A DNA stretch of 52,927 nt from a virus (IMGVR_UViG_3300038330_000053:1-52927), one strand, 5' to 3'. Shown: positions 8,561 through 47,309, counted from the first letter of the stretch. Translations and numbers: made by a program. The notes: generated from the sequence alone by a model not told the origin.

Positions 8561-8589
8561 ATCGTAGCGTGTCGCTGGCCCGCTGTCAA
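8561..8589 (-). promoter_or_regulatory. Sigma70-type promoter TTGACA-17-TACGAT
   Basis: Consensus -35, 17-bp spacer, intergenic. Confidence 0.8.
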
Positions 8590-8593
8590 GCGG

Positions 8594-8758: not shown

Positions 8759-8841
8759 TCCCGGCCCCCGCCGATGATCAGGAGGATGGCCACCGACAGG
8801 AAGAAGACCGCCCCGATCAGCAGCCACCAGGTCGTCTCCAC
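8755..8841 (-). CDS. 28-aa single-TM peptide METTWWLLIGAVFFLSVAILLIIGGGRE (not in ORF track)
   Basis: Hand-translated; fills the gap; stop coupled to the next start. Confidence 0.5.
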   Translation of the reverse strand: METTWWLLIGAVFFLSVAILLIIGGGRE

Positions 8842-8850
8842 GGCGGGCCG

Positions 8851-8988
8851 TCAGCGTCCCAGCAGCGCGCCGATGATGGCGAAGGGCAGCAGGCACAGGC
8901 CCACGACGAACGCGCCCATCAGCAGGAGCCCACCTCCGTAGAACACGATGGTGGCGATGATCAGGGCGATCTCCACGCCGGGGCTCAT
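8851..8988 (-). CDS. 45-aa hydrophobic membrane protein
   Basis: ATGA coupling; almost entirely hydrophobic. Confidence 0.55.
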   Translation of the reverse strand: MSPGVEIALIIATIVFYGGGLLLMGAFVVGLCLLPFAIIGALLGR

Positions 8989-9800: not shown

Positions 9801-9834
9801 GAGGGCCTCCTCGGTGAGGGTGAGGGGCTAAGGG

Positions 9835-10026
9835 TTAGGCCGCGCGCCGGTCGGCTAGCTTCAAGAGGGCGTCGAAGATCTCCTTGACGAGGACCAGGGC
9901 CTCCTCCTTGGAGAGGTACTCGTGGCGCAGCCCCTTGTTGCGGTCGTCCGTGCTGCGGGTTCCGTTCGACACCGTCAATTCGATGTTGCCGGGCATCACG
10001 GTGCTCACGAGAGCGGTCACGGCCAT
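9835..10026 (-). CDS. Hypothetical protein (MAVTALVS...); in-frame GTG at 10131 is an alternative start
   Basis: GAGGAGGAG RBS before ATG 10026. Confidence 0.55.
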   Translation of the reverse strand: MAVTALVSTVMPGNIELTVSNGTRSTDDRNKGLRHEYLSKEEALVLVKEIFDALLKLADRRAA

Positions 10027-10127
10027 GTCATCTCCTCCTCCATGGTTGATGTGGGTGCGGGCGAGGTCACGCTCGCGCGTGCGCTCCGCGAGAAGCCGGC
10101 GCAGCCACGCGCACTCGTCCTCGGGCG

Positions 10128-11108: not shown

Positions 11109-11272
11109 GAGCCGATCCTCCAGCCCTCCGCGTCTTCGTGCGCGGTGATGTGGTCGGGGTGGAAGCCGTAGCCCCCGCCCGTGTCGATCCAATCTATGGC
11201 ATCATCGTCCTTGACCCCCAGCGCCTCAACGCGCAGCTTGAACTCGCCCCACGTCATCTGTCGCGGTTTCAT
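11105..11272 (-). CDS. Hypothetical protein (MKPRQMTWGEFK...)
   Basis: AAGGAGG RBS and an upstream promoter. Confidence 0.6.
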   Translation of the reverse strand: MKPRQMTWGEFKLRVEALGVKDDDAIDWIDTGGGYGFHPDHITAHEDAEGWRIGS

Positions 11273-11294
11273 TTGCTTTGGCCCTCCTTGGCTC

Positions 11295-11323
11295 AGTGTC
11301 GCGCATCGTTGGCTCGCTGTCAA
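11295..11323 (-). promoter_or_regulatory. Sigma70-type promoter TTGACA-17-GACACT
   Basis: Consensus -35, 17-bp spacer, intergenic. Confidence 0.7.
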
Positions 11324-11372
11324 GAGAAACCTTCGCTCGGCAGCGGCAGCCTGGGCCGGGATGTCCCTACTC

Positions 11373-11726
11373 CTAGACTTTGGGCTGCTTGCGGGGCCGG
11401 ATCATGGGGATGCCGCGCGGAACGAGGAGCCCGCCCTCGTGTGAGCCACCGGCCCGCACGTGCAGGCGGTACTGCCAGAGCCCCATGCCGATGTAGCGGC
11501 GATCCACTGTGTGGCTGCCAAACCGGGCCTTGCGGAAGTCGCGCAGACGGGCGCTCACGCTGGCCTCCGGGTAGCCCGTGGCCTCCGAGATGGCGGCCAG
11601 AGACCGCCACCGACCGGCGATCATGTAGTCCCAGACGCGGCGGCGCTGGCGGGCGAGGCGCTCGCGGTCCCGCTCGGGCTCGTACGTCTCGCCGTCCGCG
11701 TGGCCGTCAAACTCCGTCGTCGTCAT
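11373..11726 (-). CDS. Winged HTH DNA-binding protein
   Basis: SLAAISEATGYPEASVSARLRDFRK...WQYRL pattern. Confidence 0.75.
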   Translation of the reverse strand: MTTTEFDGHADGETYEPERDRERLARQRRRVWDYMIAGRWRSLAAISEATGYPEASVSARLRDFRKARFGSHTVDRRYIGMGLWQYRLHVRAGGSHEGGLLVPRGIPMIRPRKQPKV

Positions 11727-25558: not shown

Positions 25559-26149
25559 ATGGCCCAATCGTTCTTCGTGACGCTTAGCCCCGCCGGGTAC
25601 CCCCAGTACCCCAACCTGTTCGTGGCACGTGTGCTGGAGGGCTTCTCGCCGGGCAGCCCCCCGCCGCGCCCGCAACCGGGCCCGCTGCCGCCGTACATCG
25701 ATAACACCCTGCCCGGTCTGCCGCCGTACATCGACAACACGCTCCCAGGCCTGCCCCCGTACATCGATAACACGCTGCCGGGGCTGCCACCCTACATCGA
25801 CAACACGCTGCCGCAGCCGCCGCCGGTCATCAGCGGCGGACCTGGCTGGCTTCCGCAGCCGCCCCCGCGCCCCACGCATCCCATCATGCTGCCGGGGATG
25901 CCGGGCTGGGGCGGAGGCCCCATCGGGCCGCCAACGCTGCCGCCCAACTGGCCCCTGCCGGGACCGGGTGAGCCGGGCAGCCCGTCGAACCCGCACCCGC
26001 CGGGCAGCGGCGCGCCCCCGAGTTCCGAGGAGGGTGGCGTCTTCTACATCTATCGCCCCGATGGGTCGGGGTTCTACGGGCCCTATCCCGTGCCCGAACC
26101 GCCGCCGGTCGTGGACAACACGCTGCCGGTGCCGCCGCAAGCTCCGTAG
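25559..26149 (+). CDS. Proline-rich repeat protein
   Basis: AGGAGG RBS; LPPYIDNTLPG repeats. Confidence 0.75.
   Translation: MAQSFFVTLSPAGYPQYPNLFVARVLEGFSPGSPPPRPQPGPLPPYIDNTLPGLPPYIDNTLPGLPPYIDNTLPGLPPYIDNTLPQPPPVISGGPGWLPQPPPRPTHPIMLPGMPGWGGGPIGPPTLPPNWPLPGPGEPGSPSNPHPPGSGAPPSSEEGGVFYIYRPDGSGFYGPYPVPEPPPVVDNTLPVPPQAP
25685..25816 (+). repeat. Four tandem 33-bp coding repeats (LPPYIDNTLPG/Q)
   Basis: Read directly; differences are almost all synonymous. Confidence 0.9.
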
Positions 26150-26162
26150 CGGTTAGCGGGTC

Positions 26163-29100
26163 GTGCCGGTTCACCACCGCAAGGTGAGCCCCGCCCCGCC
26201 CGTGGGCGGGCCGAACACCGTCACCACGGCCGACTGGAACGATGCGCTGGTCGGCCTGGGTGGCGGTGACGGCCTGCCCCTGGTGCGCAAGGCGGCGCAC
26301 GCCGACGGCATGGACTTCGCCGCCACGGCGGCGGAGGTCCGCGACACCCTCGACGTGTACGCGCAGGCCGAGGTGGACGCCCTGCTCGCCGCCGTCGAGA
26401 CGACGCCAGGTCCGCCGGGTCCGCAGGGCCCCGCAGGCGTGGAGGGCCCCGCCGGGCCCGCAGGGGCGGACGGCGCAACGGGCGCGCAGGGGCCGACCGG
26501 CGCGACAGGTCCAGCGGGCGCAGACGGCGCGGCGGGCGCAGACGGGGCGACGGGCCCCGCTGGCCCCACGGGCGCGACCGGCGCGGAGGGCCCGCAGGGC
26601 GTGCAGGGCGTGCCGGGCGACGTGGGCGCGACGGGCCCCGAGGGCCCTGCTGGCCCGACCGGCCCCGAAGGTCCACAGGGCCCCGCCGGCACGGGCATCA
26701 ACATCCAGGGCGAGGTCCCCACGGTCGGCGACTTGCCGACCGGCGCAGCGCCCGGTGACGCCTGGGTCATCGCGGAGACGGGCGACCTCTGGCAGTGGAC
26801 GGGCACGGAGTGGGTGAACCTCGGCCAGATCGTGGGTCCAGCGGGCCCGCCCGGCGCGACCGGGCCGACCGGCCCCGAGGGACCGCAGGGCCCGACGGGG
26901 GCCACGGGAGCGGCGGGGCCGCAGGGCGTGCAGGGTGTGGCCGGCACGCCGGGTGACACCGGGGCCACCGGGCCGGCGGGTCCCGAGGGCCCGGCGGGCG
27001 CCACGGGGGCGACCGGGGCCACGGGGGCGACTGGGGCCACCGGGGACACGGGCCCGCAGGGCCCGCAGGGCATCCAGGGTGTGCCGGGGGCGACGGGCGC
27101 GACGGGACCGGCCGGCGCCGACTCCACGGTGCCGGGACCGGCGGGTCCGGCGGGTGCGGAGGGCCCGACGGGTCCCACTGGCGCAACGGGCGCACAGGGG
27201 GCTCCGGGTCCGCCGGGCCCCGAGGGTCCGATGGGGCCCGAAGGGCCGCAGGGGCCGGCGGGCGAAGGGGCCGACGTGGACGTGGTGTGGGTGGGGCCCG
27301 AGGCCCCGACCGACGCCGACACGGAACTGTGGGCCGACACCGATGCGGCGCTGCCCGCCGAGACACGGATCGGCCACTGGGTCGCCGCGGATGCGGCCGG
27401 CGCGGGGACGACGCTCCCGGATCGCTCGCCGAGCGCGGCGCACGGCACGCTCACGGCGGGCTGTACGTGGGGCACGGTGGGCGCGGGCGAGGCGGCGCTC
27501 CGGTGTCCGGGCAGCGATCACGCCGCCGTCGCCGACCACGCGCGCTGGACGCTGGGCGACTTCACGCTGACCATGCGCGTGCTGTTCCACAGCGTGACGG
27601 GCCAGCCCGGGCTCCTCGCCCACAGCGCCGGGAGTGGAGCCGTCGCGAAATGGGTCTGGAACTACCGCTATGCGGGCGGCGGGTCGGCGGATCGGCTCGC
27701 CGTGCATACGAGCGGTCCCTACGCGACCGGGGCCGCGCGGACGCTGACCGCGGGGGTCGTCTACGCGCTCGGGGTCAAGCGCAGCGGCTCCACGTGGACG
27801 TTCTACGCCAACGGCGCGACCGATGGCACCACCACGGCCGCGGGGGCGCTGTCGGACGTGGCCCAGCCGCTGCGGATCGGGTGGGGCGGCGAGACCTTCT
27901 TCGACGGCGATGTGTCGGTCGTGGCGTGCCGCATGGACGCCACGGCGCTGAGCGACGCGGCGGTCCTCGGCATCCTCGCCCAGCCCGACCTCGCCAATCC
28001 ACCGGCCCCGATTGTCCTCAAGGTCAAGGTCGATGATGCGTGGGCGCTCGCAACCGGCGTCACCGGCCCAGCCGGCGCCACAGGCGCCACCGGCCCGACG
28101 GGCGCAACCGGGGCGACCGGCCCGACCGGCGCGACGGGCGCGGCCGGTCCCGGTGTGCCCGCGGGCGGCGCGACCGACACGATCCTGACGAAGGCGAGCG
28201 CGGCCGACTACGCGACCGTGTGGGACAACACGCTGAACATCGCGTCGGTCTACGCATCAGGCACGGTGGACGGCAACTTCCTGAACAGCCGTACCGGCAT
28301 TACCCAGGCCAAGCACAGTTGGCTCTATGGAGGAGATGTTGCGCTTATCGCGGCTGGTGGCGGGGGCGCCGGCACCGTTATTTATGTCGGTGGTGGCGCT
28401 GGCACACTCATTCAACTGAGCCTCCCCGTCACCGCGAGCAGCACGATTTACGCCACCGGCATCATCAGCACGGGCGGCGACTTCCGGATGCCCCAGAGCG
28501 CGTACCTGTACAGCGGCGCGCGGGGCATGATCACGTTCGACGGCACGTACACCGTGATGAATGGGCCGACCTACCACAACGGGACGTTCGGGGCGACCGG
28601 CAAGATCAACTCGAATGGTGAGCTTGAGGCCGGAAGCCACATCCGAATGCCGCAAGGCTATTCCCTCTATGGCGGCGCGCGGGCATTGATTGCCTTCGAC
28701 GGCACATACACGACCATTGGCGGGCCTGCCATTGTGGGCACGTCGCTCTCGGTCAGCACGACCCTGTACGTCGGGAACACGGCGACCATCCAGAACGGCC
28801 TTGACGTGGGCAGCCTCTACAACCGAGGAAACGCCACCCTCGTGTCCGGGGCCAACTTCCAGTGGGGATCGGGCTACATCCTCGCGCTGGAGTCGGCCGG
28901 TCAAATCTATGCCGTGCGTAACGGGAACACGTACTTCAATGACCTCGGCGGCTGGAGCGAGTTTTGCGGGGCCGTCACCTTCCGCAGCACCGTGACCCAC
29001 TGGACCGACCGCACCTTCCAGGGCTCGAACGGCCTGTGGATCGCGTACGTGCGGAGCAGCCCACCCGAAATCCTCTACGCGTACAACGCCAACTGTCGCT

Positions 29101-29507
29101 TCAACGAGAGTGCGGGCGTCACGTCGTTCCACTCGACGGTCCACTTTCCGGCCGGCGCGAACATGTATACGGACGGGGGGCTGCGCTGCAACGGCGTCTA
29201 CAACCTCATCGGCGGGGCATGGTACACGCACCCGGACTACGTCTTCGAGCACGCCTACACGGGCCGCATCGAGTTGTTCAAGGACGCGCCGGGGGCCCGC
29301 AGCTACACCGGCCTGCGCCCGCTCGCGGAGGTGGAGGCGTACACCCGCGAGCACTGGCGCCTGCCGGACCACGTACGCGACGGCCAGTACGAGGTGTTCC
29401 GGCGTGGCGACGAGACACTGGCCGAGGTCGAGCGAATTTACCTTTACTGTTTTGACTTCAATCGGCGCATCGAAGCCCTGGAGGCCCATGCCAAATCGGC
29501 GCGTTGA
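26163..29507 (+). CDS. Collagen-like tail fibre with LamG-like domain and C-terminal chaperone-like domain
   Basis: Long G-X-Y runs; FTLTMRV...WTFYANG...LRIG; PDYVFE...LAEVEAY...LP...VERIYLY coil. Confidence 0.85.
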
Positions 29508-31404: not shown

Positions 31405-33174
31405 GTGACGACGCACTATCCGCTCCCGGCGGCGGACGCGGCGTACCTGCCCGACGAGGCGGCGTTCCTCACGGGCGAGGACGCGGCCCGTTTCCGGGAC
31501 ATGTTCGAGCCCTTCGTCGTGGCCGGCGGGACGCACGCGCCGGGCGCGGGCCTGACGCACACGCCGGACCCGCTCACCGCGTACCCCGCCGGCATCTACA
31601 CCGTGGAGACGGCGTCCCTCACCTACGAGAACGCCGTCACGACCTGGGTCATCTGCGACGCCGCCACGACCGGCAACAGCGGCAGCTACGTGCGGGTGCC
31701 CGGCACGCACTACCTCACCGCGATCAGCGGCGTGCAGCCGGCGGTGCCGGCGACGGCGTGTCCGCTGATGGGCGTGACGACGGGTGGGGGCTCCGTCACG
31801 GCCGTGCAGGATCTCCGGCTCCTGGGGCCCGTGCAGCGCCTCGCGCTCCGGGGCGTGGTCTTTAGCGGCTACTACGCCACGCTTCAGGAGGCCATCGACG
31901 CGCTGCCGACCGAGGGCGGGACGGTGTTCGTGGAGCCCGGCACCTACACGCTATCCACCACGCTGACCCTCGGCAATGGGAGCGCGGCCGGGGCCAGCAC
32001 GCGGCGGGGCGTGGCGCTCAAGGGCGTGGCGGGCGGCGGCACCGCGTTGAGCGTGCTCCAGTGGGTGGGCGGGGCCGCGCCGGTCGTGCAGGTGCGCGGG
32101 CCGCTGATCGGCTGGACCATCGAGAACCTCTACATCGATGGCGCGGGCGTGGCCACGGTCGGCGTGGACGTGGTGAGCGCGAAGTACGGCCGCCTGGAGC
32201 ACGTGGAGATCCACGGCTGCCAGGTCGCGGGGCTCCGCCTCACGTCGGTCACGACCGTGTCGGACGCCGCCATCAGCCAGCACAATCACATCGCCAACCT
32301 CTTCATCAACGCGGCGGGCGACGCCGGCATCGAGGTGGACGGCGCGGCCGAGGCCACGGCCTCGATGTACAACACGTTCGACACCCTCAACGTCAACGTG
32401 ACGGGCAACGGCATCGGCCTGCGCCTGGGGTGCGCCCTCAACAACACGTTCACCGCGTGCCGCATCAACGACGCGGGCGGGGCGACGGGCTCGATTCACT
32501 TCGCCTACGACAACGGGGGGAGCGCGCTCCGGCCGGCGGGCAACGTGTTCGTCAACCTGGAGACGGGCGGCGTGCCCATGACGCAGTCGGGCGATCCGAC
32601 GAATGGCCTGCCGCCCAACCTGATGCTGGGGATGTCGCCGGCCGGGCTCATGGTCATCCCGGACATTGACGGCCTCGCCCTCATCTTCGTGGAGGAGTCC
32701 ACGGGCGACCTGTACCTCCTCGCCTCCCAGAACCCGACCAACGGCATCGCGCCGGTCGGCAACGTGGTCGTGGGCCAGGTCACGGGCCAGGTCCGCCACT
32801 TCGTGCCCGCCATCGACGGCGTGGCGTCGCTCGGGACGCCCACGCTCCGGTGGCACCGCCTCCATACGACCGGCGGCATCTCCACGGGCATCGCGACCGT
32901 CGCGACGAGCGGGACGCTGAACGACGGTCACCACGTGGTGCTGGTGGACGCGGCGGCCGGTTCCGTCGATATCACGTTGCCGCCGCCCGTCGGGATCACC
33001 GGCACGGTCTACATCGTCAAGAAGGTGGATGCGTCCGCGAACGCCGTCACGGTCCACACCACCGGGGCCGAGACCATCGACGGCGCGGCGACGACCGTCC
33101 TGGCCGCCCAGTGGGACGCGATCCACGTCGTGACCGACGGGCTCAACTGGTTCATTGCCGGGATCGGACCCTGA
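31405..33174 (+). CDS. Tailspike with pectin-lyase-like beta-helix
   Basis: TLQEAIDALPTEGGTVFVEPGTY; Asn-ladder repeats; C-terminal ITLP...YIVKKVD...TIDG module. Confidence 0.85.
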   Translation: MTTHYPLPAADAAYLPDEAAFLTGEDAARFRDMFEPFVVAGGTHAPGAGLTHTPDPLTAYPAGIYTVETASLTYENAVTTWVICDAATTGNSGSYVRVPGTHYLTAISGVQPAVPATACPLMGVTTGGGSVTAVQDLRLLGPVQRLALRGVVFSGYYATLQEAIDALPTEGGTVFVEPGTYTLSTTLTLGNGSAAGASTRRGVALKGVAGGGTALSVLQWVGGAAPVVQVRGPLIGWTIENLYIDGAGVATVGVDVVSAKYGRLEHVEIHGCQVAGLRLTSVTTVSDAAISQHNHIANLFINAAGDAGIEVDGAAEATASMYNTFDTLNVNVTGNGIGLRLGCALNNTFTACRINDAGGATGSIHFAYDNGGSALRPAGNVFVNLETGGVPMTQSGDPTNGLPPNLMLGMSPAGLMVIPDIDGLALIFVEESTGDLYLLASQNPTNGIAPVGNVVVGQVTGQVRHFVPAIDGVASLGTPTLRWHRLHTTGGISTGIATVATSGTLNDGHHVVLVDAAAGSVDITLPPPVGITGTVYIVKKVDASANAVTVHTTGAETIDGAATTVLAAQWDAIHVVTDGLNWFIAGIGP

Positions 33175-33555: not shown

Positions 33556-35502
33556 GTGCGTCTGGTCGAAAAACACCCCGGACGCGAGGCCGCGACCCTC
33601 CAATTCACCCAGGAAAACCTCGAAAAGCTCAATGCGTGGCTCACCCGCGAGATCGAGGACGCGCTGAGCGCGCGCGCGGCCCAGGAAACCGCCTGGCGCG
33701 AGGATCTGGCCGCCTACGAGGGCGTCCCCAAGAACCCGGTCATCAACTTTCCGGTCCAGAACGCCCCCAACACGGTCATCACGCTCGGCGCGATTGCGAC
33801 GGACTCGATTTACTCGCAGGCGCTTGATCTGATGTTCACGGTGAGCCCGCCAGTGACCGCGCGGGCGGTCCAGGGGCGCGCGACGGACGCCGTGATGGGC
33901 TTGCAGCGCCTGATCGACTGGGGCGTCAAGAACGAGTGGGGCCTGGAGTTGGCCGCCGAGCACTCGGTGCTCGATGACGTGCAACTCGGCACCGGGGTCT
34001 TCTACATTCCGTTCGTGGAGGAGCGCAAGAAGACCAAGACCCACAAGTCCACGTCCCGGCACCCCCTGATCCAGACCGTGCCCGTGGAAGACCTCCTGGT
34101 GCCGGGCGGAGCCATGGGCGACGTGCAGAAGACGCGGTGGGCGGCCCTCCGCTTCTGGTACACGCAGGGCGAACTCCACGACCGGGCGCGCGGCGAGAAG
34201 TGGTGGTCCGTGGACGGCATGTTGCCGACCGGCAGCATCGGCTGGATGCGCACCCGCCGGGAGGTCCTTGGCCGCACGAGTTCCGGCACGAGAGTGTCGG
34301 AACTCTACGAGGTGTTTCGGATCTGGATCTACTGGGACATCGACGGGGACGGCTACGACGAAGATCTGCAGGTGATCTGGGACCGCACGAGCCGCACGCT
34401 CCTCCGGGTGAGCTATAACCCCTACGACTACCGGCCCATCGAGATCATGCGCTACCAGATCCGGGCCCACCTGTTCTACGGGCTCGGCGTGATGGCGATG
34501 GCGCGCCCCTACCAGGAAGAGACGACCATCGTCCACAACCAGCGTGTCCTGAACATGCTGCTGGCGAACGCCCGGATCTGGAAAGGACGGGAGACCACGG
34601 TCCCCGAGACGCTGACGATCTGGCCCGGCAAGGTCATCACGATGGCCGACCCGGCCGACCTGGCGTCCGAGGCGATGGCGGACGTGTATCCGTCAAGCCT
34701 CCAGGCGGAGCAGGTGACCATCAGCCTGGCTGAGCGCCGGTTAGGGATCAATGATCTCTCCATGCCGCGTCCGTCCGCCGTGATGGGGAGTCGGACGCCC
34801 GGCATCACAGCGCTCAGCCTCCTCCAGCAGATCTCCAAGCGGTTCACGGCGGCGTTCAACCAGATGCGTAACGGCGCGGCCCGCTCCGTGCGCCAGTGCC
34901 TCTACCGCTACCAGGAACGGCTCCTGGCGGGGGACCGTGAGGTGGAGGCCCACCTCTACCGCATCCTGGACGACGACGCGCCGGCCGTCATCGCGCTCCT
35001 GCGCGACCCGGAGTTCGATGAGGCGATTAGCGTGGAGCTAACCGCTAGCTCCGCGAGCGTGAACCGCGACGCTGACCGCCAGAACGCCATCATGCTGGTC
35101 CAGTTGCTGGGCCAGTACTACCAGCGCACCCTGGAGCTTGTGAGCATCGCGGCGAACCCGCAGACGCCGCCCGCCGTGCGCAACGTGGCGGAGAAGATCG
35201 CGGAGGCGGCCGGCAAGATCATCGAGCGGACGATCCGGACGTTCGACGTGATCCGCGACCCCAGCACGTTCATCCTGGACGTGGAGGAGGAGTTGGATCA
35301 GATCCAGGGCCTGTCGGCCGAGGGAATGCTCGGCCTGAACAACATCATGGGGCAGGTACTCCAGACGGCCGGCGGGGCGATGCAGCCCGGTGGCGCGCCC
35401 GCTGCAGCCCAGGGGATGTCAGGTGGTCCAGCTATGGCTGCCGCTAATGGAGGGGGCCCCGCCGCCGGGGCCGGAGACGCGAACCCTGTCCCAGTGGAGT
35501 GA
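33556..35502 (+). CDS. Portal protein
   Basis: 648 aa; DDVQLGTG, FYGLGV, C-terminal Q/M/G-rich tail; upstream of scaffold and capsid. Confidence 0.85.
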   Translation: MRLVEKHPGREAATLQFTQENLEKLNAWLTREIEDALSARAAQETAWREDLAAYEGVPKNPVINFPVQNAPNTVITLGAIATDSIYSQALDLMFTVSPPVTARAVQGRATDAVMGLQRLIDWGVKNEWGLELAAEHSVLDDVQLGTGVFYIPFVEERKKTKTHKSTSRHPLIQTVPVEDLLVPGGAMGDVQKTRWAALRFWYTQGELHDRARGEKWWSVDGMLPTGSIGWMRTRREVLGRTSSGTRVSELYEVFRIWIYWDIDGDGYDEDLQVIWDRTSRTLLRVSYNPYDYRPIEIMRYQIRAHLFYGLGVMAMARPYQEETTIVHNQRVLNMLLANARIWKGRETTVPETLTIWPGKVITMADPADLASEAMADVYPSSLQAEQVTISLAERRLGINDLSMPRPSAVMGSRTPGITALSLLQQISKRFTAAFNQMRNGAARSVRQCLYRYQERLLAGDREVEAHLYRILDDDAPAVIALLRDPEFDEAISVELTASSASVNRDADRQNAIMLVQLLGQYYQRTLELVSIAANPQTPPAVRNVAEKIAEAAGKIIERTIRTFDVIRDPSTFILDVEEELDQIQGLSAEGMLGLNNIMGQVLQTAGGAMQPGGAPAAAQGMSGGPAMAAANGGGPAAGAGDANPVPVE

Positions 35503-37791: not shown

Positions 37792-38697
37792 ATGCCCCCG
37801 ATTGTCCGAGGTGCCTTCTCACCCCTGCTCGCGCCTGACCTCCGCAAGGTCTACGTCGAGACCGGCAAGGAGCGGCCCGTCGAGTTCCGCCTGTGGTGCA
37901 ACGTCACCACGATGGAATGGAACCCGATGCGCGACCAGCAGATCAGCGGCCTGGGCACCATGCCGCAGAAGCCCGAGGGGACGGACTTCCTCCTGGACCA
38001 GCCCATCCTGGGCGGCAACAAGTCGTACCTCGCCGCGCCCTACGGCCTGGGCGTGGAGATCACGTGGGAGATGTGGCGCGACGACCTGTACGGCGTCATG
38101 CGGGAACTCGTCGCGGGCCTGGCCCGCGCGTCCCGCAACCGGATGGAAGTGAGCGGGCACGCGGTCCTGAACAACGCGTTCAACACGGCGTTCTCCGGGT
38201 TCACAGCGGGTGAAGCGCTGTGCAGCGCGGCGCACGCCGGGTTGGACGGCGTCACCCGCGCGAACCGGCCGTCACCGGACATCGGCTTCAGCGTGACCGG
38301 CATCCAGGCCGCCATCGCCCGCTTCGAGGGCATGACGGACGAGCGCGGCCTCCCGCGCCTCATGTCCCCGATCCTCGCGTTCGTGGGCCCCTCGAACAAG
38401 TATGTGGCCCGTGAGATCCTGGGATCGAGCGGCAAGCCGTACACGGCGGACAACGAGATCAACGCCCTGATCGAAGAGGATCTGTCGTGGATGATCGGCC
38501 ACTACTTCTCCACATCCACGATGTGGTTCCTCATGGCCGCCAAGGGCGTCCACGACCTCAACATGATGATGCGGGACGAGCCGATCTTCGATTCGTTCGA
38601 TGATCCCCGCAACAAGAACGCGGTGTTCACCAGCTACCAGCGCCACACGGACTCGCAGTACGGGGCGTGGCGCGGGATCGACGGGAGCACCGGCTGA
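37792..38697 (+). CDS. Major capsid protein (Mu gpT-like HK97 fold)
   Basis: GLG.MP.KPEG, YGLGVEITWEM..DDLYG, GEALCSAAH, NEIN, WF, WRGIDGSTG; AGGAGGAG RBS. Confidence 0.9.
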   Translation: MPPIVRGAFSPLLAPDLRKVYVETGKERPVEFRLWCNVTTMEWNPMRDQQISGLGTMPQKPEGTDFLLDQPILGGNKSYLAAPYGLGVEITWEMWRDDLYGVMRELVAGLARASRNRMEVSGHAVLNNAFNTAFSGFTAGEALCSAAHAGLDGVTRANRPSPDIGFSVTGIQAAIARFEGMTDERGLPRLMSPILAFVGPSNKYVAREILGSSGKPYTADNEINALIEEDLSWMIGHYFSTSTMWFLMAAKGVHDLNMMMRDEPIFDSFDDPRNKNAVFTSYQRHTDSQYGAWRGIDGSTG

Positions 38698-39719: not shown

Positions 39720-40670
39720 ATGGCCACCGTACAGGACGTGGCCCGCCAGGTGTTGGCGGCCATCGACACCACCGCCGGTCACTTGCTCTGTTGTCAGTGG
39801 GTCGCGCAGCGCTACACCCAACTGTGCTCGCGGGCCCGGTTCCGCCACCTCCGCCGCGTCGGCGCGGTCATGCTGCCCGCGCCCGTGACGGACGGCACCA
39901 TCACCATCGCGGAGGGCTCGGACACCGTCGTGGGCGATGCGACCGCGTCAGCCGCGTGGGCCACGCAGGATCTGGTCGGGTGGCACCTCCGCACCCGGAC
40001 CAACTGGTCCCGTGTCGTGGCGCGGGTGGGGCCGGCGACGCTCCGGCTGGCGAGCCCGCAGACCGAGGGCGACAACGTCGCCGCCACGTACCAGCTTGTC
40101 CGGCGGTACGTGCCCCTCGCGCCGGAGGCGCGGTGGCTCACGCAGGACGGGTTCGTCCTGCAACGGACGTGGACCCCGCTGCGGCCCCAGCCGCTCGCCG
40201 CGCTGGACTACCAAGCGCCGAGCCGCCCGCTGGTCGGACCCTGGCCGCTGACGTGGACCCAGGTGGAGTCCCTCGCGGATGGGACCATCCAGATCGAGTT
40301 CTACCCCATCTCGTCGCAGATCGAGACGGTCTCCTACGTGTACTGGGCCGTCCCGCCGGAACTCGCGATGGACGCCGAGGTGCCCTCCACGATTGACGCG
40401 GGGGTGCTGGTGGAGGGGGCGCTCCACGACGCCATGCGCTACAACGCCGCCAAGGCCGCCAACGCGGGCAACATCGAGGCGGCCGGCTACTGGCGCAACG
40501 AGTACCGCGCCCAGAACCTCGTGTGGGAACGGCGCATCCTCGAAGCGATCCGGACGGATCGCGGCCTGGACGACGTGACCCTGATCCTCCAGATGCAGAA
40601 CGCCTACTACGGCGTGCCGCAGGATCTGATGACGGCGCGCGACCACATCTGGTACGGATGGCGGCCATGA
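39720..40670 (+). CDS. Head-tail adaptor-like protein with inserted beta domain
   Basis: TVQDVARQV N-terminal helix; FYP; LVEGAL C-terminal helices. Confidence 0.65.
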   Translation: MATVQDVARQVLAAIDTTAGHLLCCQWVAQRYTQLCSRARFRHLRRVGAVMLPAPVTDGTITIAEGSDTVVGDATASAAWATQDLVGWHLRTRTNWSRVVARVGPATLRLASPQTEGDNVAATYQLVRRYVPLAPEARWLTQDGFVLQRTWTPLRPQPLAALDYQAPSRPLVGPWPLTWTQVESLADGTIQIEFYPISSQIETVSYVYWAVPPELAMDAEVPSTIDAGVLVEGALHDAMRYNAAKAANAGNIEAAGYWRNEYRAQNLVWERRILEAIRTDRGLDDVTLILQMQNAYYGVPQDLMTARDHIWYGWRP

Positions 40671-40728
40671 GTCCGCGAGCGCGTGCCCCCCTGTTGGGGG
40701 CACGGGCGAGCGGGGGCGTCTAGCCCCG

Positions 40729-41298
40729 ATGGCCGTCGAGGCCGGCACGCTGGTGGACCGCGTGCTCCAGCGCATCCGCGACGAGCGCGCCACCGGGACC
40801 GCGCGCACGCTCGTGCGCGCGGTCATGACCCATGCGCAGCGCCTCGTGAACGGGAAGCTGGGCCTCGTCATTCGGGACCTCGCGTTCCCCACGGTGGCGT
40901 ATCAGGGCGTCTACCCGCTTGCGACGCTCGCGCCCACGGCGTTGCGCGTGCTGGGCGTGCAGCAGGGCCCCCGCGACCTCACGGAGGTGCCGTGGCAGGA
41001 GTTCGCGTACGAGCGACGCACGTGGCTGCGCGACGCGCGCAGCCGCTACGAGAGCTACGCCCTGATCGGGCGCAACATGCTGGTCCTGTACCCGACCCTG
41101 GCAGAGCCAGGGTCGGTCTCGCTGCGCGTGGCCGTGCTGACCATCGATCTCGCGTCCGACGCGAGCGAGATCGAGTTGCCCGATGAGTACCACCCGCTCC
41201 TCGTGGACCTGACGAGCGCGGTCCTGCTCGTGCGCCAGCGCACGTTCCTGTCCGTGGGCACGCTCGCGGACGCCATCGCCAAGCGGACGGCCGCGTGA
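40729..41298 (+). CDS. Head-tail adaptor-like protein
   Basis: LVDRVLQRIRD...YPL...LYPT...LPDEYHPLLVD. Confidence 0.7.
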   Translation: MAVEAGTLVDRVLQRIRDERATGTARTLVRAVMTHAQRLVNGKLGLVIRDLAFPTVAYQGVYPLATLAPTALRVLGVQQGPRDLTEVPWQEFAYERRTWLRDARSRYESYALIGRNMLVLYPTLAEPGSVSLRVAVLTIDLASDASEIELPDEYHPLLVDLTSAVLLVRQRTFLSVGTLADAIAKRTAA

Positions 41299-41879
41299 GC
41301 CGGGCCAGCGTCATCGCGCTCGCGCAGGCCCTGGCCAACGACCAGGCGGACCCCACCAGCCTGGAGCGCTACTACGACGACGCGGTCACGGACCTCGCGC
41401 AGAGCACCATGTGGATGGTGCTGGAGATCGTGACGGGCACGCCCGGCGTCGCCATCTATGATCGGCCCGCGCGCGTGGCGGACCTGGTGACCGTGTTCTA
41501 CGACGACACGATGCTCTCACTGGCGACGCACCGGGAGATGGACGCCCTGTCCCCTGAGTGGCGGACGCACGTCGGCCGGCCGACGGCCTACCTCTACGAG
41601 GACATCAGCTATACCCAGGTCCAGGTCTATCCCATCCCCACGGACACGGGCACGCCGGTCATTCCGGTGCATGGCGCGCCCTTCGGCCTGGACTACCCCG
41701 TCGGCTCGCTGGCCATCCTCGCGACCGCGCGGATGGACGACATGCCCGTATGGATGGATCTGCCGCTCGCGCTCGCGCTCCTGCAGCGGGAGTACAGCCG
41801 GCCGTCGCCGCACATGGACCCGGGCTTCGCGGAGGGGTGTAAGGCGCTGGGCCTGCTGTGCGCCACGATGGTGGCCTAG
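41295..41879 (+). CDS. Head-tail adaptor-like protein
   Basis: MDALSPEWRT..GRPTAY...VYPIP; GTGA coupling. Confidence 0.7.
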   Translation: MSRASVIALAQALANDQADPTSLERYYDDAVTDLAQSTMWMVLEIVTGTPGVAIYDRPARVADLVTVFYDDTMLSLATHREMDALSPEWRTHVGRPTAYLYEDISYTQVQVYPIPTDTGTPVIPVHGAPFGLDYPVGSLAILATARMDDMPVWMDLPLALALLQREYSRPSPHMDPGFAEGCKALGLLCATMVA

Positions 41880-42062: not shown

Positions 42063-43979
42063 ATGCCCGTGGTGCGCATCCGGTGGCGTGACTTCACCAA
42101 GGGCTGGTGGGGCACGGGCGCACGCGACGCGCAGCCCGACGGCACGCTGCGCCGCGCCGTGGGCATCCACTACACCAAGATGACGGAGTTGCGGAGCCGG
42201 TACGGCTGCACGGTCCTGGCGAACCTGGACGCCCACTCCGTGGCGCGCTACAACCATCACCGCTACATGGGCGTGGACACGGGGTTCTGGGTCGATGGCC
42301 TCACGGTGCTCCAAGGTGGGCTGGACGGCAGCAAGCTCACGTGCGTGCGGGCCCAGCCCACGGTGGACGTGGAGGACTACCTGTTCGTCGCGGGGGGCGG
42401 CCTCCTCTTCAAGGTGGGCCCCGACAACGTCGCGAGCCTGTGGGGCATCGAGCCGCCGCCCAACGGCTTCCTGGCCGGCGCGAACACGGCCGGCGACATC
42501 GTCATCGATGAGATGGAGACGGCCGCCGCCTGGACCGCCGTCTCGTGTGTCCTCGCGGACGAGGCCGTCATCAAGCAGCAGGGCACCAACGCCATGAAGA
42601 TGACGGTCGCGGCCTCCACGACGGGGACGGCCACCAAGGCCATCACGGTGGACCTCGCCACGTTCGGCAGCGGCGTGGACTCCCCCGAGGAAGACTTCAT
42701 CAGCTTGTGGGTCCGCGTGGACCACCCGGAGCGGGTGGAGGCGCTCACGCTCTCATTCGATGTGGCCGGCACCGTGTTCGCCGCCGATTACTACGTGCGG
42801 GACGTGGTGCCCTCGGAGCAACGGGTCGCGCCGGGGCAACTCTCGACACAGACTGGCGGCATCGCCGCGTACCGCTACAGTCCGCAGGCGGGGCAGACGG
42901 TCGCGGTCCTGCCGGACGCGAACACGGGCGAGTGGCGACTGTTCACCATCTCGCCCGATGGCGGCATCAGCCAGCAGGTGCATGACCCCGCCGTGCTCGC
43001 GGAGTTTCAGGGCGGGGCGACGCAGTCGTTCCTGCCCGCGACGCTCGATACGTGGACGTTTGTGCGGCTGCCCAAATCGACGTTTGCGCGGGTGGGCGGC
43101 GGCGCAGGGACGTGGGCCACGGTCCAGGCGGTCAAGATCCAGATGCGCACGAACGCGCTGGGCGAGGCCATCGCCTACCTCGATGCGATGCACGCGCAGG
43201 GCGGCGTGGGCCTCCAGGGGACCTACACGTACCACGTCACCTACCTCAACGCGGTGACGGGCACTCGCTCGAATCCGAATCCGACGCCCGTCGTGGTGCC
43301 CACAGTGGCGCGCGGGGGCGTCACGCTGACGAACCTGCCCGAGAGCACGGACCCCCAGGTGACGCACGTCGAAATCTTTCGCACCGTGGGCAACGGCACG
43401 CTCCACTTCAAGGTCGGAGAGGTCACGAACGGGACGGCCCTGTGGGTGGACGAGGTGTCCGACGCGGCGACGCTGGACTCGCGGCCCGATGTCGCGCTCA
43501 TGACGGACATCGAGTTGCCGTTCGATAACCTGCGGCCCGACGATGCGTGGGACGACGTGTTCGGCCCCTACGCGGGCTGCCTCTTCTGGACCCGGTCGCC
43601 CAACGCCGGGGAGCGGGGCAAGGTGTTCTTCTCGCCGCCGGGGCGGACGGAGGTGGCGGGCGGCTACATCACCATCTCGTCGGACGACGAGCCCGCCCTC
43701 AAGGGCGTCGTCTTCAACGGCTCGGCGTACGTGTGGACGACGAAGGGCGTGTACCAGATCATCGGCGCGGGCCCGTTCAGCAGTCGGCGGGTGTACGGCG
43801 TGCCCGGCACGCTGTGGCCGCTGGCCATCGCGCTCACACCGTACGGCGTGGCGTACCTGGCGAACGATGGGCCTCGGATCTTCGATGGGAACACGTCCAA
43901 GCTCATCGCGAACGCGCCCATCTCGCTGCTGTTCCGCGACGAGTCCGTCGAGAACATCCGCTTCGTGCTGGATGCGTGA
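42063..43979 (+). CDS. Tail nozzle-like protein, N-terminal part
   Basis: DFTKG..LRSRYG start; YTYHVTY..TRSNP..VEIFRT; propeller blades; follows the adaptors. Confidence 0.7.
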   Translation: MPVVRIRWRDFTKGWWGTGARDAQPDGTLRRAVGIHYTKMTELRSRYGCTVLANLDAHSVARYNHHRYMGVDTGFWVDGLTVLQGGLDGSKLTCVRAQPTVDVEDYLFVAGGGLLFKVGPDNVASLWGIEPPPNGFLAGANTAGDIVIDEMETAAAWTAVSCVLADEAVIKQQGTNAMKMTVAASTTGTATKAITVDLATFGSGVDSPEEDFISLWVRVDHPERVEALTLSFDVAGTVFAADYYVRDVVPSEQRVAPGQLSTQTGGIAAYRYSPQAGQTVAVLPDANTGEWRLFTISPDGGISQQVHDPAVLAEFQGGATQSFLPATLDTWTFVRLPKSTFARVGGGAGTWATVQAVKIQMRTNALGEAIAYLDAMHAQGGVGLQGTYTYHVTYLNAVTGTRSNPNPTPVVVPTVARGGVTLTNLPESTDPQVTHVEIFRTVGNGTLHFKVGEVTNGTALWVDEVSDAATLDSRPDVALMTDIELPFDNLRPDDAWDDVFGPYAGCLFWTRSPNAGERGKVFFSPPGRTEVAGGYITISSDDEPALKGVVFNGSAYVWTTKGVYQIIGAGPFSSRRVYGVPGTLWPLAIALTPYGVAYLANDGPRIFDGNTSKLIANAPISLLFRDESVENIRFVLDA

Positions 43980-43994
43980 GGACCGCTAACGAAC

Positions 43995-45227
43995 GTGGCC
44001 ATCGACCACATGGACTGGACGCGGCGCGCTGTGCTCGACCCCATCAACCGGCTCGTCTGGACCGTCCAGTCCCCGACGACGCAGCAGGAAGGGACGGCGT
44101 ACGGCCTGGCCGTGTTCAGTGATGGGTCCATCACCGCGTTCATCTCCGATACGTGGTGGGTCGCCGGGATCGGACGTGGGCTACGACTCGTGCGCTCAAT
44201 CGACGGCGGAACGACGTGGACCGGCATGGATTCGGACGGTGTCAAGACCAAGCTCACGTACTACAACACCTCCGACCCGATCCGTCAGCACGGTGACACG
44301 GTGTGGCTGCCGACGGGAACGTGGGCGAACAACTCGGCGAACTGGACCACGATCTGCAACACCACACCGTCGCTCCTCGGGACCTTCTTCGCCCTGGCGA
44401 CCGACGGCGTGACCCTCACCCCGCTCGGGGTCCACGACCCCGCGTTCAGCTACAACCTGTACAGCGTCGTGGCCGCCGCGACGCCGCTGCTCTACGCGGG
44501 GCAGATCGGGGTCCAACCGGCGTTCGACCCGATCTACACTGAGCGGGGCTACGTGTTCGCCCAGACGGGCGCGTTCGGATCGGACCCGACGATGAACACG
44601 ATGGTCTCCGGCGTCCAGATCCCCGGCACGGATCACGTCGTCGCGGCGGGCACGCAGGTCCCGGTCGGCGGGGGGACGGCGGTCCAGCGGGTGATGCGAT
44701 CCACGGACGGGGGCGCGACGTGGACGATGGTCACCCCCGATCCCACGCGCACCTATGCGTCCGTCCAGTACTTCCCGTCGATCAGCCGCCTCCTAATGGG
44801 CGGGAACCGGGGGTGGTACAGCGACGACGAGGGCGTGACCTGGACCCAGATGTTCGGTGGCAGCATCTCGCAGTTCTGCCAGGTCACCGACGACGTGTTC
44901 GTCGCGGCGGGATCGGGCTGGGCGACTTGGTCGCAGGATCGCGGGCAGACGTGGGGCAACAGCGGGGCGACGTACACGCCGCCCCGCGATCCCGTGACCT
45001 ATTCTCCCCGTAGTATCGTGCGTCTGCCCGACGGCGTGTCGGTCCTCATGCTCGTCGTCAAGGGGAGTGCGCCCGGGGCAGCCGCCGAGGTGTGGCGCGG
45101 GACCTTTGACCCACCGCTAGCGCCGCCTGCGCCGCCTGCGCCGCCTGCGCCTGAGCCGCTCGCGCCAACGGTTCAGAGTGCGCGCGAACGGCTCAGCTTG
45201 CGCATCGTCGGGACCTATGTGCCATGA
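43995..45227 (+). CDS. BNR/Asp-box beta-propeller protein, cassette 1
   Basis: RSIDGGTTW, RSTDGGATW, SDDEGVTW, SQDRGQTW; Pro linker; ends SLRIVGTYVP. Confidence 0.85.
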   Translation: MAIDHMDWTRRAVLDPINRLVWTVQSPTTQQEGTAYGLAVFSDGSITAFISDTWWVAGIGRGLRLVRSIDGGTTWTGMDSDGVKTKLTYYNTSDPIRQHGDTVWLPTGTWANNSANWTTICNTTPSLLGTFFALATDGVTLTPLGVHDPAFSYNLYSVVAAATPLLYAGQIGVQPAFDPIYTERGYVFAQTGAFGSDPTMNTMVSGVQIPGTDHVVAAGTQVPVGGGTAVQRVMRSTDGGATWTMVTPDPTRTYASVQYFPSISRLLMGGNRGWYSDDEGVTWTQMFGGSISQFCQVTDDVFVAAGSGWATWSQDRGQTWGNSGATYTPPRDPVTYSPRSIVRLPDGVSVLMLVVKGSAPGAAAEVWRGTFDPPLAPPAPPAPPAPEPLAPTVQSARERLSLRIVGTYVP

Positions 45228-45520
45228 CGCTCACACGCATCGAGCAACGCCTCATCAAGAAGACGCACTACTTCGGGCGTGACCTGGGCACGCTCGGGAA
45301 CCTCTGACTCGTGGCACGTGTGGCCCGCCGTCGGCGGGCTGAGTTCCGGCGGGGACCGGACGGGCTGGAGCCGGTGGACGCGACGAGCGCGGCGATCCTC
45401 CGCGCCACGACCGACGACGTGGCCGCGTACCTGGGGTTCGCGGACGCGACGGCGTACGACGCGGCGACCCCGGAGGAGCGGCAGCAGCGCGCACAGGACG
45501 CTGTGATTGAGGGCGACTGA
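45224..45520 (+). CDS. Small ORF with in-frame TGA at 45305 (or two tiny genes, 45224-45307 and 45311-45520)
   Basis: Both parts are in the same frame; coupled to both neighbours. Confidence 0.45.
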
Positions 45521-46785
45521 TGCCGCCGACCCTCCACTTCTCGCTGGTCATGTCCACGCCCTTCGAGGACTGCGGCCTGGGGGGCATCACTTGCACAGGC
45601 GGGGGCGGCATGACCGCGTACGTCGAGGACTTCACCGACTTCGGCACGACGTACCGTATGCGCATCTTCCGCTCGACGGATAACGGCCTCACGTGGGCCG
45701 AGCCCTGGTCGTACACGTCGCCGGCCAACCCGTGGTTCTACCAGATGAAGTCGCCGCGCTTCGGGCGGGTGCTCGTGGGGTCCGAGGGGCCGTACGAGTG
45801 CATCCCCGAGATGCTGAACGATATCTTCCCGGTCTCGGACGACGCGGGCGAGACGTGGGTCGGGGCCAATGCCCCGCACTACGCGGACGACTGTCTTGAC
45901 GACTGGACGACGCGCGACTTCGTGGTCCTCGACGCGAACGAGGTGCTGGCGTACGGGGGGCACCGCATCGGTGGCGGCGTGTACTACCACATGATGCGCT
46001 CCTTGGACGGCGGAGCTACCTGGGGCGCGCCGTTTCAGGTTGCGCCGGCCGGGACGACGGGGCTGGCCGAGATTTCGACCATGACGTGGCTCGGCGGCGA
46101 CACGCTCGTTGCCAGTGGGAGGATGCGCAACGCTTCGGCGGTCCCCATCTATCGGTCTACGGATCGGGGCGCGACCTGGACGGGGAGCGTGCCACCGGCT
46201 GGGACGGGCTCTCGGTACATGGGATCGGCGTCGCTCGGCGGTGGGGTCGTGCTCATCGGGAACGCCAACGGACTCTTTCGCTCGACGGATAGCGGCGTCA
46301 CGTGGGCAAGCATCAGCGCATCTCTGCCCAGCTTCTTGGGTGGCACCGGCTACATCGTGTCGCCTGGCGCGGGCGTGGCGGTCGTCATGATCGGTGGGGC
46401 CGAGTTCGACAACGTGTGGTGGTGGACGGCGGACAGCGGCGTCACGTGGGCCCGCGCCACGCACACGGCACCGACTGATGAGCCACGCGCGCCAGGAGGC
46501 ACCCAACACTTCATGGCCGTGGCCGACGACGGGTCGATCCTGTCCACGAGCCTGTCGAAAGCGGCGACGGCGACCCCAGGTGAAGGCTATAGGTTTCGTA
46601 TCTGGCGCGGTGTGTGGTCGGAGGTCGAGGGCCTGGCGCTGGCGGGGCCATGCGTCGGGTTCGTGCTACCTGAGCCCCCGGAGCCCGAGCCCGAGCCCGG
46701 GCCGCCCGAGGAGCCGCTGGCCGCGCTCCAGCAGCAGGGCCGGTTCCGCCAGAGCCTGCGCGTGACGGGGACCTACCGCCCATGA
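45520..46785 (+). CDS. BNR/Asp-box beta-propeller protein, cassette 2
   Basis: Six S/TxDxGxTW boxes; PE linker; ends SLRVTGTYRP. Confidence 0.85.
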   Translation: MPPTLHFSLVMSTPFEDCGLGGITCTGGGGMTAYVEDFTDFGTTYRMRIFRSTDNGLTWAEPWSYTSPANPWFYQMKSPRFGRVLVGSEGPYECIPEMLNDIFPVSDDAGETWVGANAPHYADDCLDDWTTRDFVVLDANEVLAYGGHRIGGGVYYHMMRSLDGGATWGAPFQVAPAGTTGLAEISTMTWLGGDTLVASGRMRNASAVPIYRSTDRGATWTGSVPPAGTGSRYMGSASLGGGVVLIGNANGLFRSTDSGVTWASISASLPSFLGGTGYIVSPGAGVAVVMIGGAEFDNVWWWTADSGVTWARATHTAPTDEPRAPGGTQHFMAVADDGSILSTSLSKAATATPGEGYRFRIWRGVWSEVEGLALAGPCVGFVLPEPPEPEPEPGPPEEPLAALQQQGRFRQSLRVTGTYRP

Positions 46786-47309
46786 GCGAGTACGTCTTCT
46801 CCAACGAGATCGTCAGCCTCGCGGTGAACCTGGAGGACGGCTCATGGCGCGTGGTCGCGACGCAGTCCGGCGTCGCCACCAAGTGCTACTGGTACGAGGA
46901 GGACACGGGCGAGTTGCTGGGCTCGGCCCTCGGCCAGGTGCTCCTGCTGGAGCGGCCCGGCGAGACGACGGACGGCGCGGCCTCCATCTACTACGAGGTG
47001 GAGACGCCCGGCGTGGCGCTCGACGCGGGCCAGATCGGCGTCATCCAGCGGGTCTACGTGGACATCAACACGCGCGGGGAGCGGCTGGAGACCGCCCTGG
47101 TGCTCGATGGCGGAGACGTGCGCGTCATCCCGGCCCTCGTGCAGACGCCCGTCCGCCAGATTGTGGAGGTGCCGACCGGGAGCGTGTCCGCGCGCCTGGC
47201 GGGCGTGCGCCTGTGGGGCGCGATTCGGCAGCGGGTGGACCTCTACGAGATTGCGCTGGACGTGAGCATCGGTATCCAGGAGCATCAGGCCCAGGGAGGC
47301 GGACGCTAA
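46782..47309 (+). CDS. Tail nozzle-like protein, C-terminal part
   Basis: EYVFS...LAVNLEDGSW, YEVETP..L......IQRVYVD, final beta-sandwich; ATGA coupling. Confidence 0.6.
   Translation: MSEYVFSNEIVSLAVNLEDGSWRVVATQSGVATKCYWYEEDTGELLGSALGQVLLLERPGETTDGAASIYYEVETPGVALDAGQIGVIQRVYVDINTRGERLETALVLDGGDVRVIPALVQTPVRQIVEVPTGSVSARLAGVRLWGAIRQRVDLYEIALDVSIGIQEHQAQGGGR

Follow-up and report, generated by a model that had tools for sequence, protein, structure and literature searches.

A virus sequence of 52,927 nucleotides (IMGVR_UViG_3300038330_000053:1-52927; this whole stretch is called the window below) carries the tail nozzle of a podovirus in separate pieces, one of which may be a strand borne by a receptor-type head protein. 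By homology to unsplit proteins, the products of 42063-43979 and 46782-47309 are the N- and C-terminal parts (N-part and C-part) of a podovirus nozzle of the T7 gp12/SU10 gp17 type. Between them lie two genes for proteins with BNR repeats, the BNR1 and BNR2 cassettes, whose shared C-terminal tails are positioned where one blade strand of a beta-propeller is absent from both nozzle halves. The interpretation that we somewhat favour is a three-piece nozzle with strand complementation by the BNR tail. A preliminary description of the sequence had listed the N-part stop at 43979, the open reading frame (ORF) starting MSEYVFS at 46782, the two BNR ORFs, the Pro-rich linker with its tail and the CCATGA junctions, and all of these are present.

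The divided nozzle

A protein search with the 638-amino-acid (aa) N-part returned 27 proteins, one of which (P0001) is the window's own fragment. Nine homologues of 605-646 aa are 46-67% identical to the N-part over 97-100% coverage. Unsplit homologues are more distant (775-862 aa, 32-45% identity), and there are longer forms with extra domains. The C-part, which is a separate ORF 2.8 kb downstream of the N-part stop, matches the long forms over their final ~165 residues, beginning precisely with their motif EY[YL]I[SA]. BLASTP comparison with the unsplit proteins P0012, P0011 and P0014 gives expectation values (E) of 1e-28, 2e-22 and 7e-22, at 33-35% identity. Homology of the 46782 product to nozzle C-termini had been set beforehand as a test in the preliminary description, and it is borne out by these matches.

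The location of the break was examined in a 23-sequence alignment (A1), which left out the window fragment P0001, P0013 as a near-duplicate of P0012, and the long proteins with extra domains P0016, P0026 and P0027. The short N-parts end within two columns of one another, after ...E[DNG]xxF, in 10 of 10 cases, and all 13 long forms read through the break column with x-V-A-x-Y-G-R-N-E-Y-x-I-S-D. On a full-length profile, the N-part occupies positions 2-617 and the C-part positions 626-785, so about eight positions are encoded by neither half. Free-standing homologues of the C-part number 14 (167-178 aa, 37-75% identity), every one of them starting with M[ST]E[YV]. Judged from these alignments, the fission of the nozzle is old, precise and maintained. 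Since the break is conserved in both N-parts and C-parts, it is neither a pseudogene nor an assembly error; these explanations were rejected, as the break falls at one column in 10 N-parts and is matched by 14 C-parts, from several sources. Contigs of three other (mine-drainage) runs are identical to the window over the region.

The nozzle fold was assigned on the unsplit relative P0011 (45% identical to the N-part) rather than on the halves from the window. The AlphaFold2 (AF2) model of P0011, built from a 32-sequence alignment, has a predicted local distance difference test score (pLDDT) of 89.8. Its top Foldseek matches, in a PDB set reaching to April 2026, are the nozzle chains 9k09_U, 7z4b, 7z47_G, 9jyz_P, 6r21_a, 7ey7_s and 8eap_D (E 7e-17 to 2e-11, template modelling (TM) score 0.31-0.45), and the nozzle matches include cyanophage A4, SU10 gp17, T7 gp12, Kp7/Kp9, the crAss001 muzzle and P22 gp10. 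In this model, the missing positions form a strand at 615-619, followed by strands at 622-626, 631-635 and 640-643, which is the predicted pattern of one four-stranded blade. What is left of the broken blade belongs to the C-part, together with about one further blade and a C-terminal beta-sandwich.

Of the IMG/VR loci L001-L039, 37 read through the junction, one (L001) is split, and L035 is cut off before the junction. A metagenome scan added the split loci L054, L055 and L057, as well as L056, which is the same contig as L001. The N-part is immediately followed by another gene in all five split loci, the window included. This is a BNR gene in the window and L055. The corresponding gene of L054 is of BNR type, as judged from visually identified Asp-boxes and a weak match to Sortilin-Vps10 (E 0.0087). 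That of L001 encodes at least 565 aa with three Asp-boxes and reaches the contig end within a long Pro-rich linker. After the L057 N-part stands a 54-aa ORF with no Pfam match; a LamG-like gene considered at this place was dropped on these grounds. Among 64 loci and the window, ORFs with at least three Asp-boxes are confined to split loci (the window, L055 and L001/L056).

A metagenome relative, L055, has an N-part at 8174-10051, a 220-nt spacer and one BNR2-type cassette at 10271-11545 ending in ...GRISTRIVGTWRP, with CCATGA at the cassette end and then a C-part starting MSEYLVS. Cassette number in relatives, a check proposed in the preliminary description, is thus one in L055 against two in the window, and the sequences indicate that both cassette number (one or two) and head type vary. 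Another cassette protein, P0043, ends in ...RLNLRIVGTYRPR and probably shares a contig with the N-part homologue P0004, as the longest contig of each measures 25,932 nt.

The clade was found in soil, mine drainage and estuary metagenomes; no RNA data set is listed among the runs that contain the sequence. An estuary run contains a ~93% identical relative holding both BNR1 and BNR2 sequence, and one contig of this run bridges the N-part into BNR1 at ~93% identity. Another estuary contig matches the window to 43986 and continues with 150 unlike letters beginning with a new ATG; this single contig is a weak hint of a relative with a different first cassette. Contigs of the public runs break at the repeat of the BNR1 Pro-rich linker. 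Genome contigs were also scanned with the nozzle protein and with alignment A2, which yielded no relative.

The unsplit nozzle family is itself very plastic (L016-L034, L022, L029, L036, L038, L039; P0016, P0026). Short forms are without profile positions ~140-360, and others are extended by 300-400 aa at the C-terminus or carry insertions near positions 388-397. In L061 (2-2603), this family is split in a second, different way. Its first ORF covers profile positions 352-688, reads through the junction that is broken in the window, and ends in an extra domain of ~100 aa. A gene of ~265 aa follows (about 1405-2202), then a 133-aa ORF (2202-2603) corresponding to positions 678-782. The strand at the L061 break is present on both sides (…QSALFATG / MSTFALHSLEG).

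Cassette tails and the missing blade strand

Both BNR proteins have a Pro-rich stretch, then RLSLRIVGTYVP (BNR1) or RQSLRVTGTYRP (BNR2) and the stop codon, each closing on CCATGA. A common tail, R-x-[SN]-[LT]-R-[IV]-[VT]-G-T-[YW]-x-P, together with a Pro-rich linker, is found in four cassettes from three phages (BNR1, BNR2, L055 and P0043). The heads of these four are 30-45% identical to one another, and the tails never vary in their R, R, G, T and P columns. A six-frame translation of all 52.9 kb contains R[IV][VT]GT[YWF] twice, and two of the 720 stop-to-stop ORFs of at least 40 aa end in the tail motif, namely BNR1 and BNR2. Such confinement to the two cassette ends means that the motif is not a chance occurrence. 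At the second junction, the reading ...VTGTYRP-MSEYVFS parallels ...TVATYGRNEYFIS of the unsplit proteins.

A three-chain model was computed from the N-part, the C-part and BNR2 residues 377-421, each with its own alignment, alongside three controls. The interface score (ipSAE) of the complex is 0.83, versus 0.00 for the best control. This mark is reached by 58 of 80 solved complexes and by 2 of 110 mismatched pairs, a calibration that is only approximate because own alignments and three chains were used. The runs agree in at least 51% of contacts, with a partner pLDDT of at least 46. The confident interface places tail residues 410-421 against residues 1-9 of the C-part (its first strand), as well as 14, 17 and 33-38, and against N-part residues 584-593, 597, 599 and 636-637. 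In the model, this is what the interface of a gap-filling strand should look like. The preliminary description had proposed that the cassettes donate the missing strand and that complex modelling could check it: the tail position fits, the BNR2 tail docks in the prediction, and we regard strand donation as likely.

Several observations weigh against this interpretation. The residue-level comparison is weak: adding the 12-residue tail to the C-part devoid of its initiator Met moves the start of the profile alignment from 622 to 614 and gains about 4 bits, a gain that is matched by 25 of 500 shuffled BNR2 tails, by 4 of 500 shuffled BNR1 tails, and by 38 and 25 of 747 internal 12-mers of the BNR proteins. 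With the initiator Met kept, the tail gives no profile extension. Residue similarity thus only weakly identifies the tail as the missing strand, and in the earlier proposed check, whether the motif fills the gap in an alignment to unsplit homologues, the position fits and the residue match is weak. Four tails are visible in all, since contig ends truncate the cassettes of L001, L054 and L057, and the gene following the L057 N-part is the short ORF described above. In the complex, the partner pLDDT is below 50, both nozzle halves reach a pLDDT of 80 in controls with unrelated peptides, and, the chains being pieces of one fold, the passing score may come from the memory that the model has of complete propellers. 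The tail put into the complex is that of BNR2. Finally, P0044 (475 aa), which has a BNR2-like head (34% identity, 95% coverage), lacks the GTYxP tail and ends in a repeated Cys-rich C-terminus (…CxHGF…C…); its sequence suggests that another phage combines this head family with a different anchor. Because the sequence test is weak, the case for the strand owes more to position, conservation and the structure model than to residue similarity.

Alternatively, the tail could be irrelevant to assembly, the BNR genes having landed in a tolerated break of the nozzle gene, with products that attach elsewhere or are not part of the virion, and with halves that associate unaided. The weak sequence test and the well-modelled halves without the cognate peptide fit such a scenario. 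So does L061, where the same family is broken elsewhere with a non-BNR gene in between; the other place of that break implies that insertions into the nozzle gene may simply be tolerated. We consider the scenario improbable nonetheless. The tail is kept across heads of 30-45% identity, always at the extreme C-terminus and behind a Pro-rich linker, and the tail of the last cassette directly abuts the start of the C-part. Furthermore, the eight missing profile positions are found in no other ORF, and the score of the complex is far from that of its controls.

Under strand complementation by the BNR tail, an ancestral single nozzle gene of the T7 gp12/SU10 gp17 type (about 800 aa) would in one clade have split into an N-part and a C-part of 175 aa. 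The break would lie inside one propeller blade, with the strand at the break encoded by neither half. This strand would instead form the extreme C-terminus of a BNR protein whose gene lies between the halves, and would follow a Pro-rich linker of 17-19 residues. The C-part would be made by termination-reinitiation at the CCATGA overlap, presumably near 1:1 with BNR2. The tail, predicted to be disordered alone, would insert as a beta-strand beside the first strand of the C-part and against the N-part, thereby completing the blade and tethering one BNR head per nozzle subunit. Such a head probably serves as a receptor module that binds or cleaves glycans. The unrelated-looking BNR1 head, bearing the same tail, could dock in some of the sockets, which could give mixed virions.

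A wider proposal is that the C-terminal strand of ~12 residues is a portable docking tag derived from the nozzle, by which any head bearing it could plug into the broken blade, allowing for arrays of one, two or more cassettes between the nozzle halves, mixed heads on six sockets, and changes of host range by cassette gain, loss or exchange. This remains a tentative idea, less likely than not to hold. One route envisaged in the preliminary description, recombination between the similar 3' ends of the cassettes, finds little in its favour: 23 of 33 bases are identical there, and exact runs do not exceed 8-9 bases. Nor is there a well-supported joint for the cassette deletion it foresaw in the contigs of four public runs. 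Candidate joints at 44721>46159, 44221>44701 and 41877>43804 were set aside, as their sides measure 20-29 letters, below the reliability mark, and they probably stem from BNR repeats or other organisms.

If strand complementation is correct, a receptor-type protein would be fixed to the tail by a strand donated to the fold of the DNA-channel protein, rather than through an adaptor domain dedicated to the purpose. With a length of about 12 residues, the anchor would be visibly nozzle-derived, and gene fission would have made a socket-and-plug assembly out of one protein. This would account for small orphan ORFs that lie downstream of tail genes, and would provide a rule for uncultured podoviruses, where a Pro-rich linker and a GT[YW]xP tail beside a truncated nozzle would mark receptor-binding proteins. 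It also suggests a minimal tag for attaching proteins to the nozzle of laboratory phages.

BNR heads, gene junctions and genome context

Both cassettes contain Asp-boxes of the form S-x-D-x-G-x-x-W (Table 1). BNR2 matches the Pfam BNR family PF02012 with 37.7 bits (cut-off 27), and BNR1 falls just below with 26.8 bits. Pfam also returns Sortilin-Vps10 for BNR2 (34 bits), and BNR_2 and Sortilin-Vps10 under the cut-off for BNR1. The two proteins are 31% identical across their last ~180 residues (E 1e-7).

Modelled alone by AF2, BNR2 has a pLDDT of 79.3, with a confident propeller and a tail (406-421) below 50. Foldseek relates the model to GH74 xyloglucanases, sortilin Vps10 domains and sialidases (E 3e-10 and weaker, TM 0.28-0.46), so that AF2 and Foldseek concur on a propeller fold for BNR2. 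Given the low TM scores, no specific enzyme can be assigned, and the head could either bind or cleave glycans. Neighbours of BNR2 in BFVD include proteins of the phage fibre or spike type, some annotated as short tail fiber and others as carrying intramolecular-chaperone auto-processing domains. By analogy, the likeliest role of the heads is glycan binding or glycan cleavage at the cell surface.

The two heads differ in their relatives. The close relatives of BNR2 are P0043 and the L055 cassette. BNR1 has no close homologue except itself among 1.84 billion representatives, and is linked to other cassettes solely via its last ~100 residues (P0215).

Table 1. Features of the nozzle locus and of the structural genes upstream, in window positions.
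Feature	Position	Strand	Evidence or remark
SU10-like portal gene	33556-35502	+	PF23899 SU10_portal, E 2.1e-24
Capsid gene	37792-38697	+	context block with PF25209 match (Pfam)
Three tandem SU10_adaptor-like genes (316, 189, 194 aa)	39720-41879	+	PF24175, E 1.2e-6, 1.6e-9, 2.3e-8
Nozzle N-part, 638 aa	42063-43979	+	stop TGA 43977-43979; C-terminal end ...ESVENIRFVLDA and stop, just before one blade strand
BNR1 cassette, 410 aa	43995-45227	+	from GTG 43995; 4 Asp-boxes
BNR1 Pro-rich linker PPLAPPAPPAPPAPEPLAP, residues 373-391	45111-45167	+	sequence
BNR1 tail RLSLRIVGTYVP and stop, closes on CCATGA	45189-45227	+	sequence
Spacer, 98-codon frame with one in-frame TGA (45305-45307)	45224-45520	+	27-codon and 69-codon ORFs
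BNR2 cassette, 421 aa, beta-propeller head at residues 1-366	45520-46785	+	5 Asp-boxes, Pfam BNR
BNR2 Pro-rich linker LPEPPEPEPEPGPPEEP, residues 383-399	46666-46716	+	sequence
BNR2 tail RQSLRVTGTYRP and stop	46747-46785	+	CCATGA overlaps C-part start; residues 410-421 are the predicted interface
Nozzle C-part, 175 aa, starts MSEYVFS	46782-47309	+	homology to C-termini of unsplit nozzles

The N-part and BNR1 share a frame, with one TGA and five codons between them, and the database copy of BNR1 begins at ATG 44010. The ATG of BNR2 overlaps the stop of the 69-codon ORF (TGATG). The preliminary description had coupled each cassette through CCATGA to the next gene; this fits the passage from BNR2 to the C-part fully, where we infer translational coupling, and does not fit the first CCATGA, whose ATG (45224) opens just a 27-codon ORF that stops at TGA 45305-45307.

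Such junctions raise the question of recoding, either by read-through of the TGA at 43977, joining the N-part to BNR1, or by a -1 slip at C-CCA-TGA (46779-46785), joining BNR2 to the C-part, so that the blade would be completed in cis. The shared frame of N-part and BNR1, with the same layout in L001 (11855-11876, 5-6 codons), is compatible with the former. For the latter, a Pro-tRNA on CCA could re-pair on CCC, followed by ATG, and the fusion would equal a continuous blade. However, the slippery context is not conserved, being G-CCA in L055 and BNR1, and P0043 ends in ...GTYRPR. The same-frame layout occurs in three of five loci, close to chance, and L055 is in the same frame with more stops; in L054, the stop of the N-part overlaps the cassette start in another frame. 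ATGA and TGATG overlaps are ordinary translational coupling. Recoding appears highly improbable to us.

The spacer between the cassettes has a coding-like third-position G+C (GC3) of 0.88 over 45311-45520, and its TGA at 45305-45307 is also present in the identical contigs from other runs. No family match above noise was obtained for 45224-45520, and comparison of 45227-45519 with the L055 spacer and with the C-part (blastn, tblastx) gave GC-rich noise only. The 27-codon ORF as a decayed C-part start is therefore unsupported. The 98-codon frame could represent two small genes, or one gene that is either broken or read through.

The window is a virus record with 70% G+C, and its structural genes form a block on the + strand. 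The SU10-type adaptor genes directly precede the nozzle N-part and the SU10-type portal gene lies further upstream, a neighbourhood shared with the nozzle genes of short-tailed phages. Three genes of the SU10 adaptor family (PF24175) immediately upstream of the nozzle are an unusual arrangement. Just upstream of the portal gene, 31405-33174 encodes a 589-aa protein resembling a pectate-lyase-like beta-helix (PF12708, E 7.8e-5, below the cut-off); from its sequence, this may be a tailspike or depolymerase, and hence a further receptor-binding protein. The G+C content rises to 0.78 at 26001-28000, compared with ~0.70 elsewhere, inside a 1114-codon ORF (26163-29507).

Comparison with other nozzles and docking systems

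The preliminary description knew of no tail system of this kind, which has been overtaken by the published two-protein split nozzle of the Pseudomonas podophage A1002. According to that account, cryo-electron microscopy resolved gp42 (nozzle-base) and gp39 (nozzle-rope) as the two components (PLoS Biol, November 2026; PMC13730344). Blades 1 and 2 of gp42 lack strands, and these are provided by the beta-propeller-C and platform-C at the C-terminus of gp39 (about 150 residues); by their numbers, gp40 and gp41, the fibre genes, fall between those of the nozzle (PMC13730344).

Similar to the window, a canonical single-chain nozzle is partitioned in A1002 and strands missing in one protein are supplied by another; the complementing piece is described as C-terminal and about 150 residues long, and fibre genes lie, by number, between the nozzle genes. 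The window likewise has a nozzle propeller shared by at least two polypeptides, going by homology to unsplit forms and by the complex model. This likeness is drawn from the published description; a tblastn search with the N-part against a phage collection gave four records, none of them A1002. The A1002 account shows that nozzle propellers tolerate completion in trans.

The A1002 account describes two pieces, whereas the window would have three, with a free-standing 175-aa C-part and the strand on a separate BNR head. In the window, the complementing part is not the C-terminus of a large fibre-docking protein, as the C-part stands alone, like its 14 homologues of 167-178 aa. The heads also differ, being BNR propellers on Pro-rich linkers, one or two with the same tail, as opposed to the described 'rope' that binds fibre dimers. 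In light of this precedent, the locus is a three-piece variant in which a receptor-type head would carry the missing strand; what would be new is the third piece, the presence of one strand on a head protein, and two different heads with one tail. The literature searches turned up no description of a nozzle strand borne by a separate head protein. If the arrangement is correct, a conserved environmental clade would take the two-piece split nozzle, as so far described for A1002, one step further to three pieces.

The A1002 precedent also suggests a possible route, by which a protein consisting of head, strand and C-part was cut once more after the strand. Taken further, the window could descend from an A1002-like two-piece nozzle secondarily cut by CCATGA, in which only the BNR2-type cassette adjacent to the C-part matters and heads do not alternate. 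BNR1 would then be a recent acquisition whose 3' end was copied by recombination and which may not assemble. As described, the last ~150 residues of gp39 complement the nozzle base and its upstream part carries the fibre dock, and its size and order match those of BNR2 plus the C-part. The single BNR2-type cassette of L055 and the isolation of BNR1 among the 1.84 billion representatives, save for the P0215 link, agree with this. We nevertheless find such an origin rather unlikely. No fused protein of BNR and C-part appeared in the BNR2 search (proteins of 231-737 aa; the 7999 candidates sharing most words were scored), and the C-part homologues are free-standing in 14 of 14 cases. BNR1 keeps an intact ORF with coding-like GC3 (0.88), a full linker and the tail motif, and the ~93%-identical relative from another habitat also has BNR1 sequence.

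Compared with the nozzles of T7 (gp12), SU10 (gp17), cyanophage A4, Kp7/Kp9 and P22 (gp10), the nozzle of the window has the same fold, going by the model of its unsplit homologue P0011 (Foldseek E 7e-17 to 1e-10), and an SU10-type adaptor and portal neighbourhood. Those nozzles are one polypeptide, and fibres attach through their N-terminal segments to surface loops or to the adaptor-nozzle interface; in SU10, as the published account describes, a propeller loop docks the short tail fibre (PMC9509320). At this locus the nozzle is not one polypeptide, and its split layout is conserved. The break in the gene falls within a blade, and a C-terminal strand that joins this blade would attach the appendage.

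Docking peptides are also encountered in podophages of Klebsiella (KP32, K11, KP34), where, as reported, a short conserved docking peptide anchors an exchangeable secondary receptor-binding protein (RBP) (PMC13352976). As described there, two heads per virion and modular swapping resemble the proposed role of the window tails, which makes this a functional analogy. The docking peptide of RBP2 is reportedly N-terminal and is said to bind the branching domain of RBP1. In the window, by contrast, the peptide is C-terminal, would complete the nozzle fold itself, and would descend from the nozzle gene.

In chaperone-usher pili, donor-strand complementation completes an incomplete beta fold with a strand of another polypeptide. 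These are unrelated proteins with an Ig-like pilin fold, and strand donation serves polymerisation, whereas in the window it would tether a head to a channel protein.

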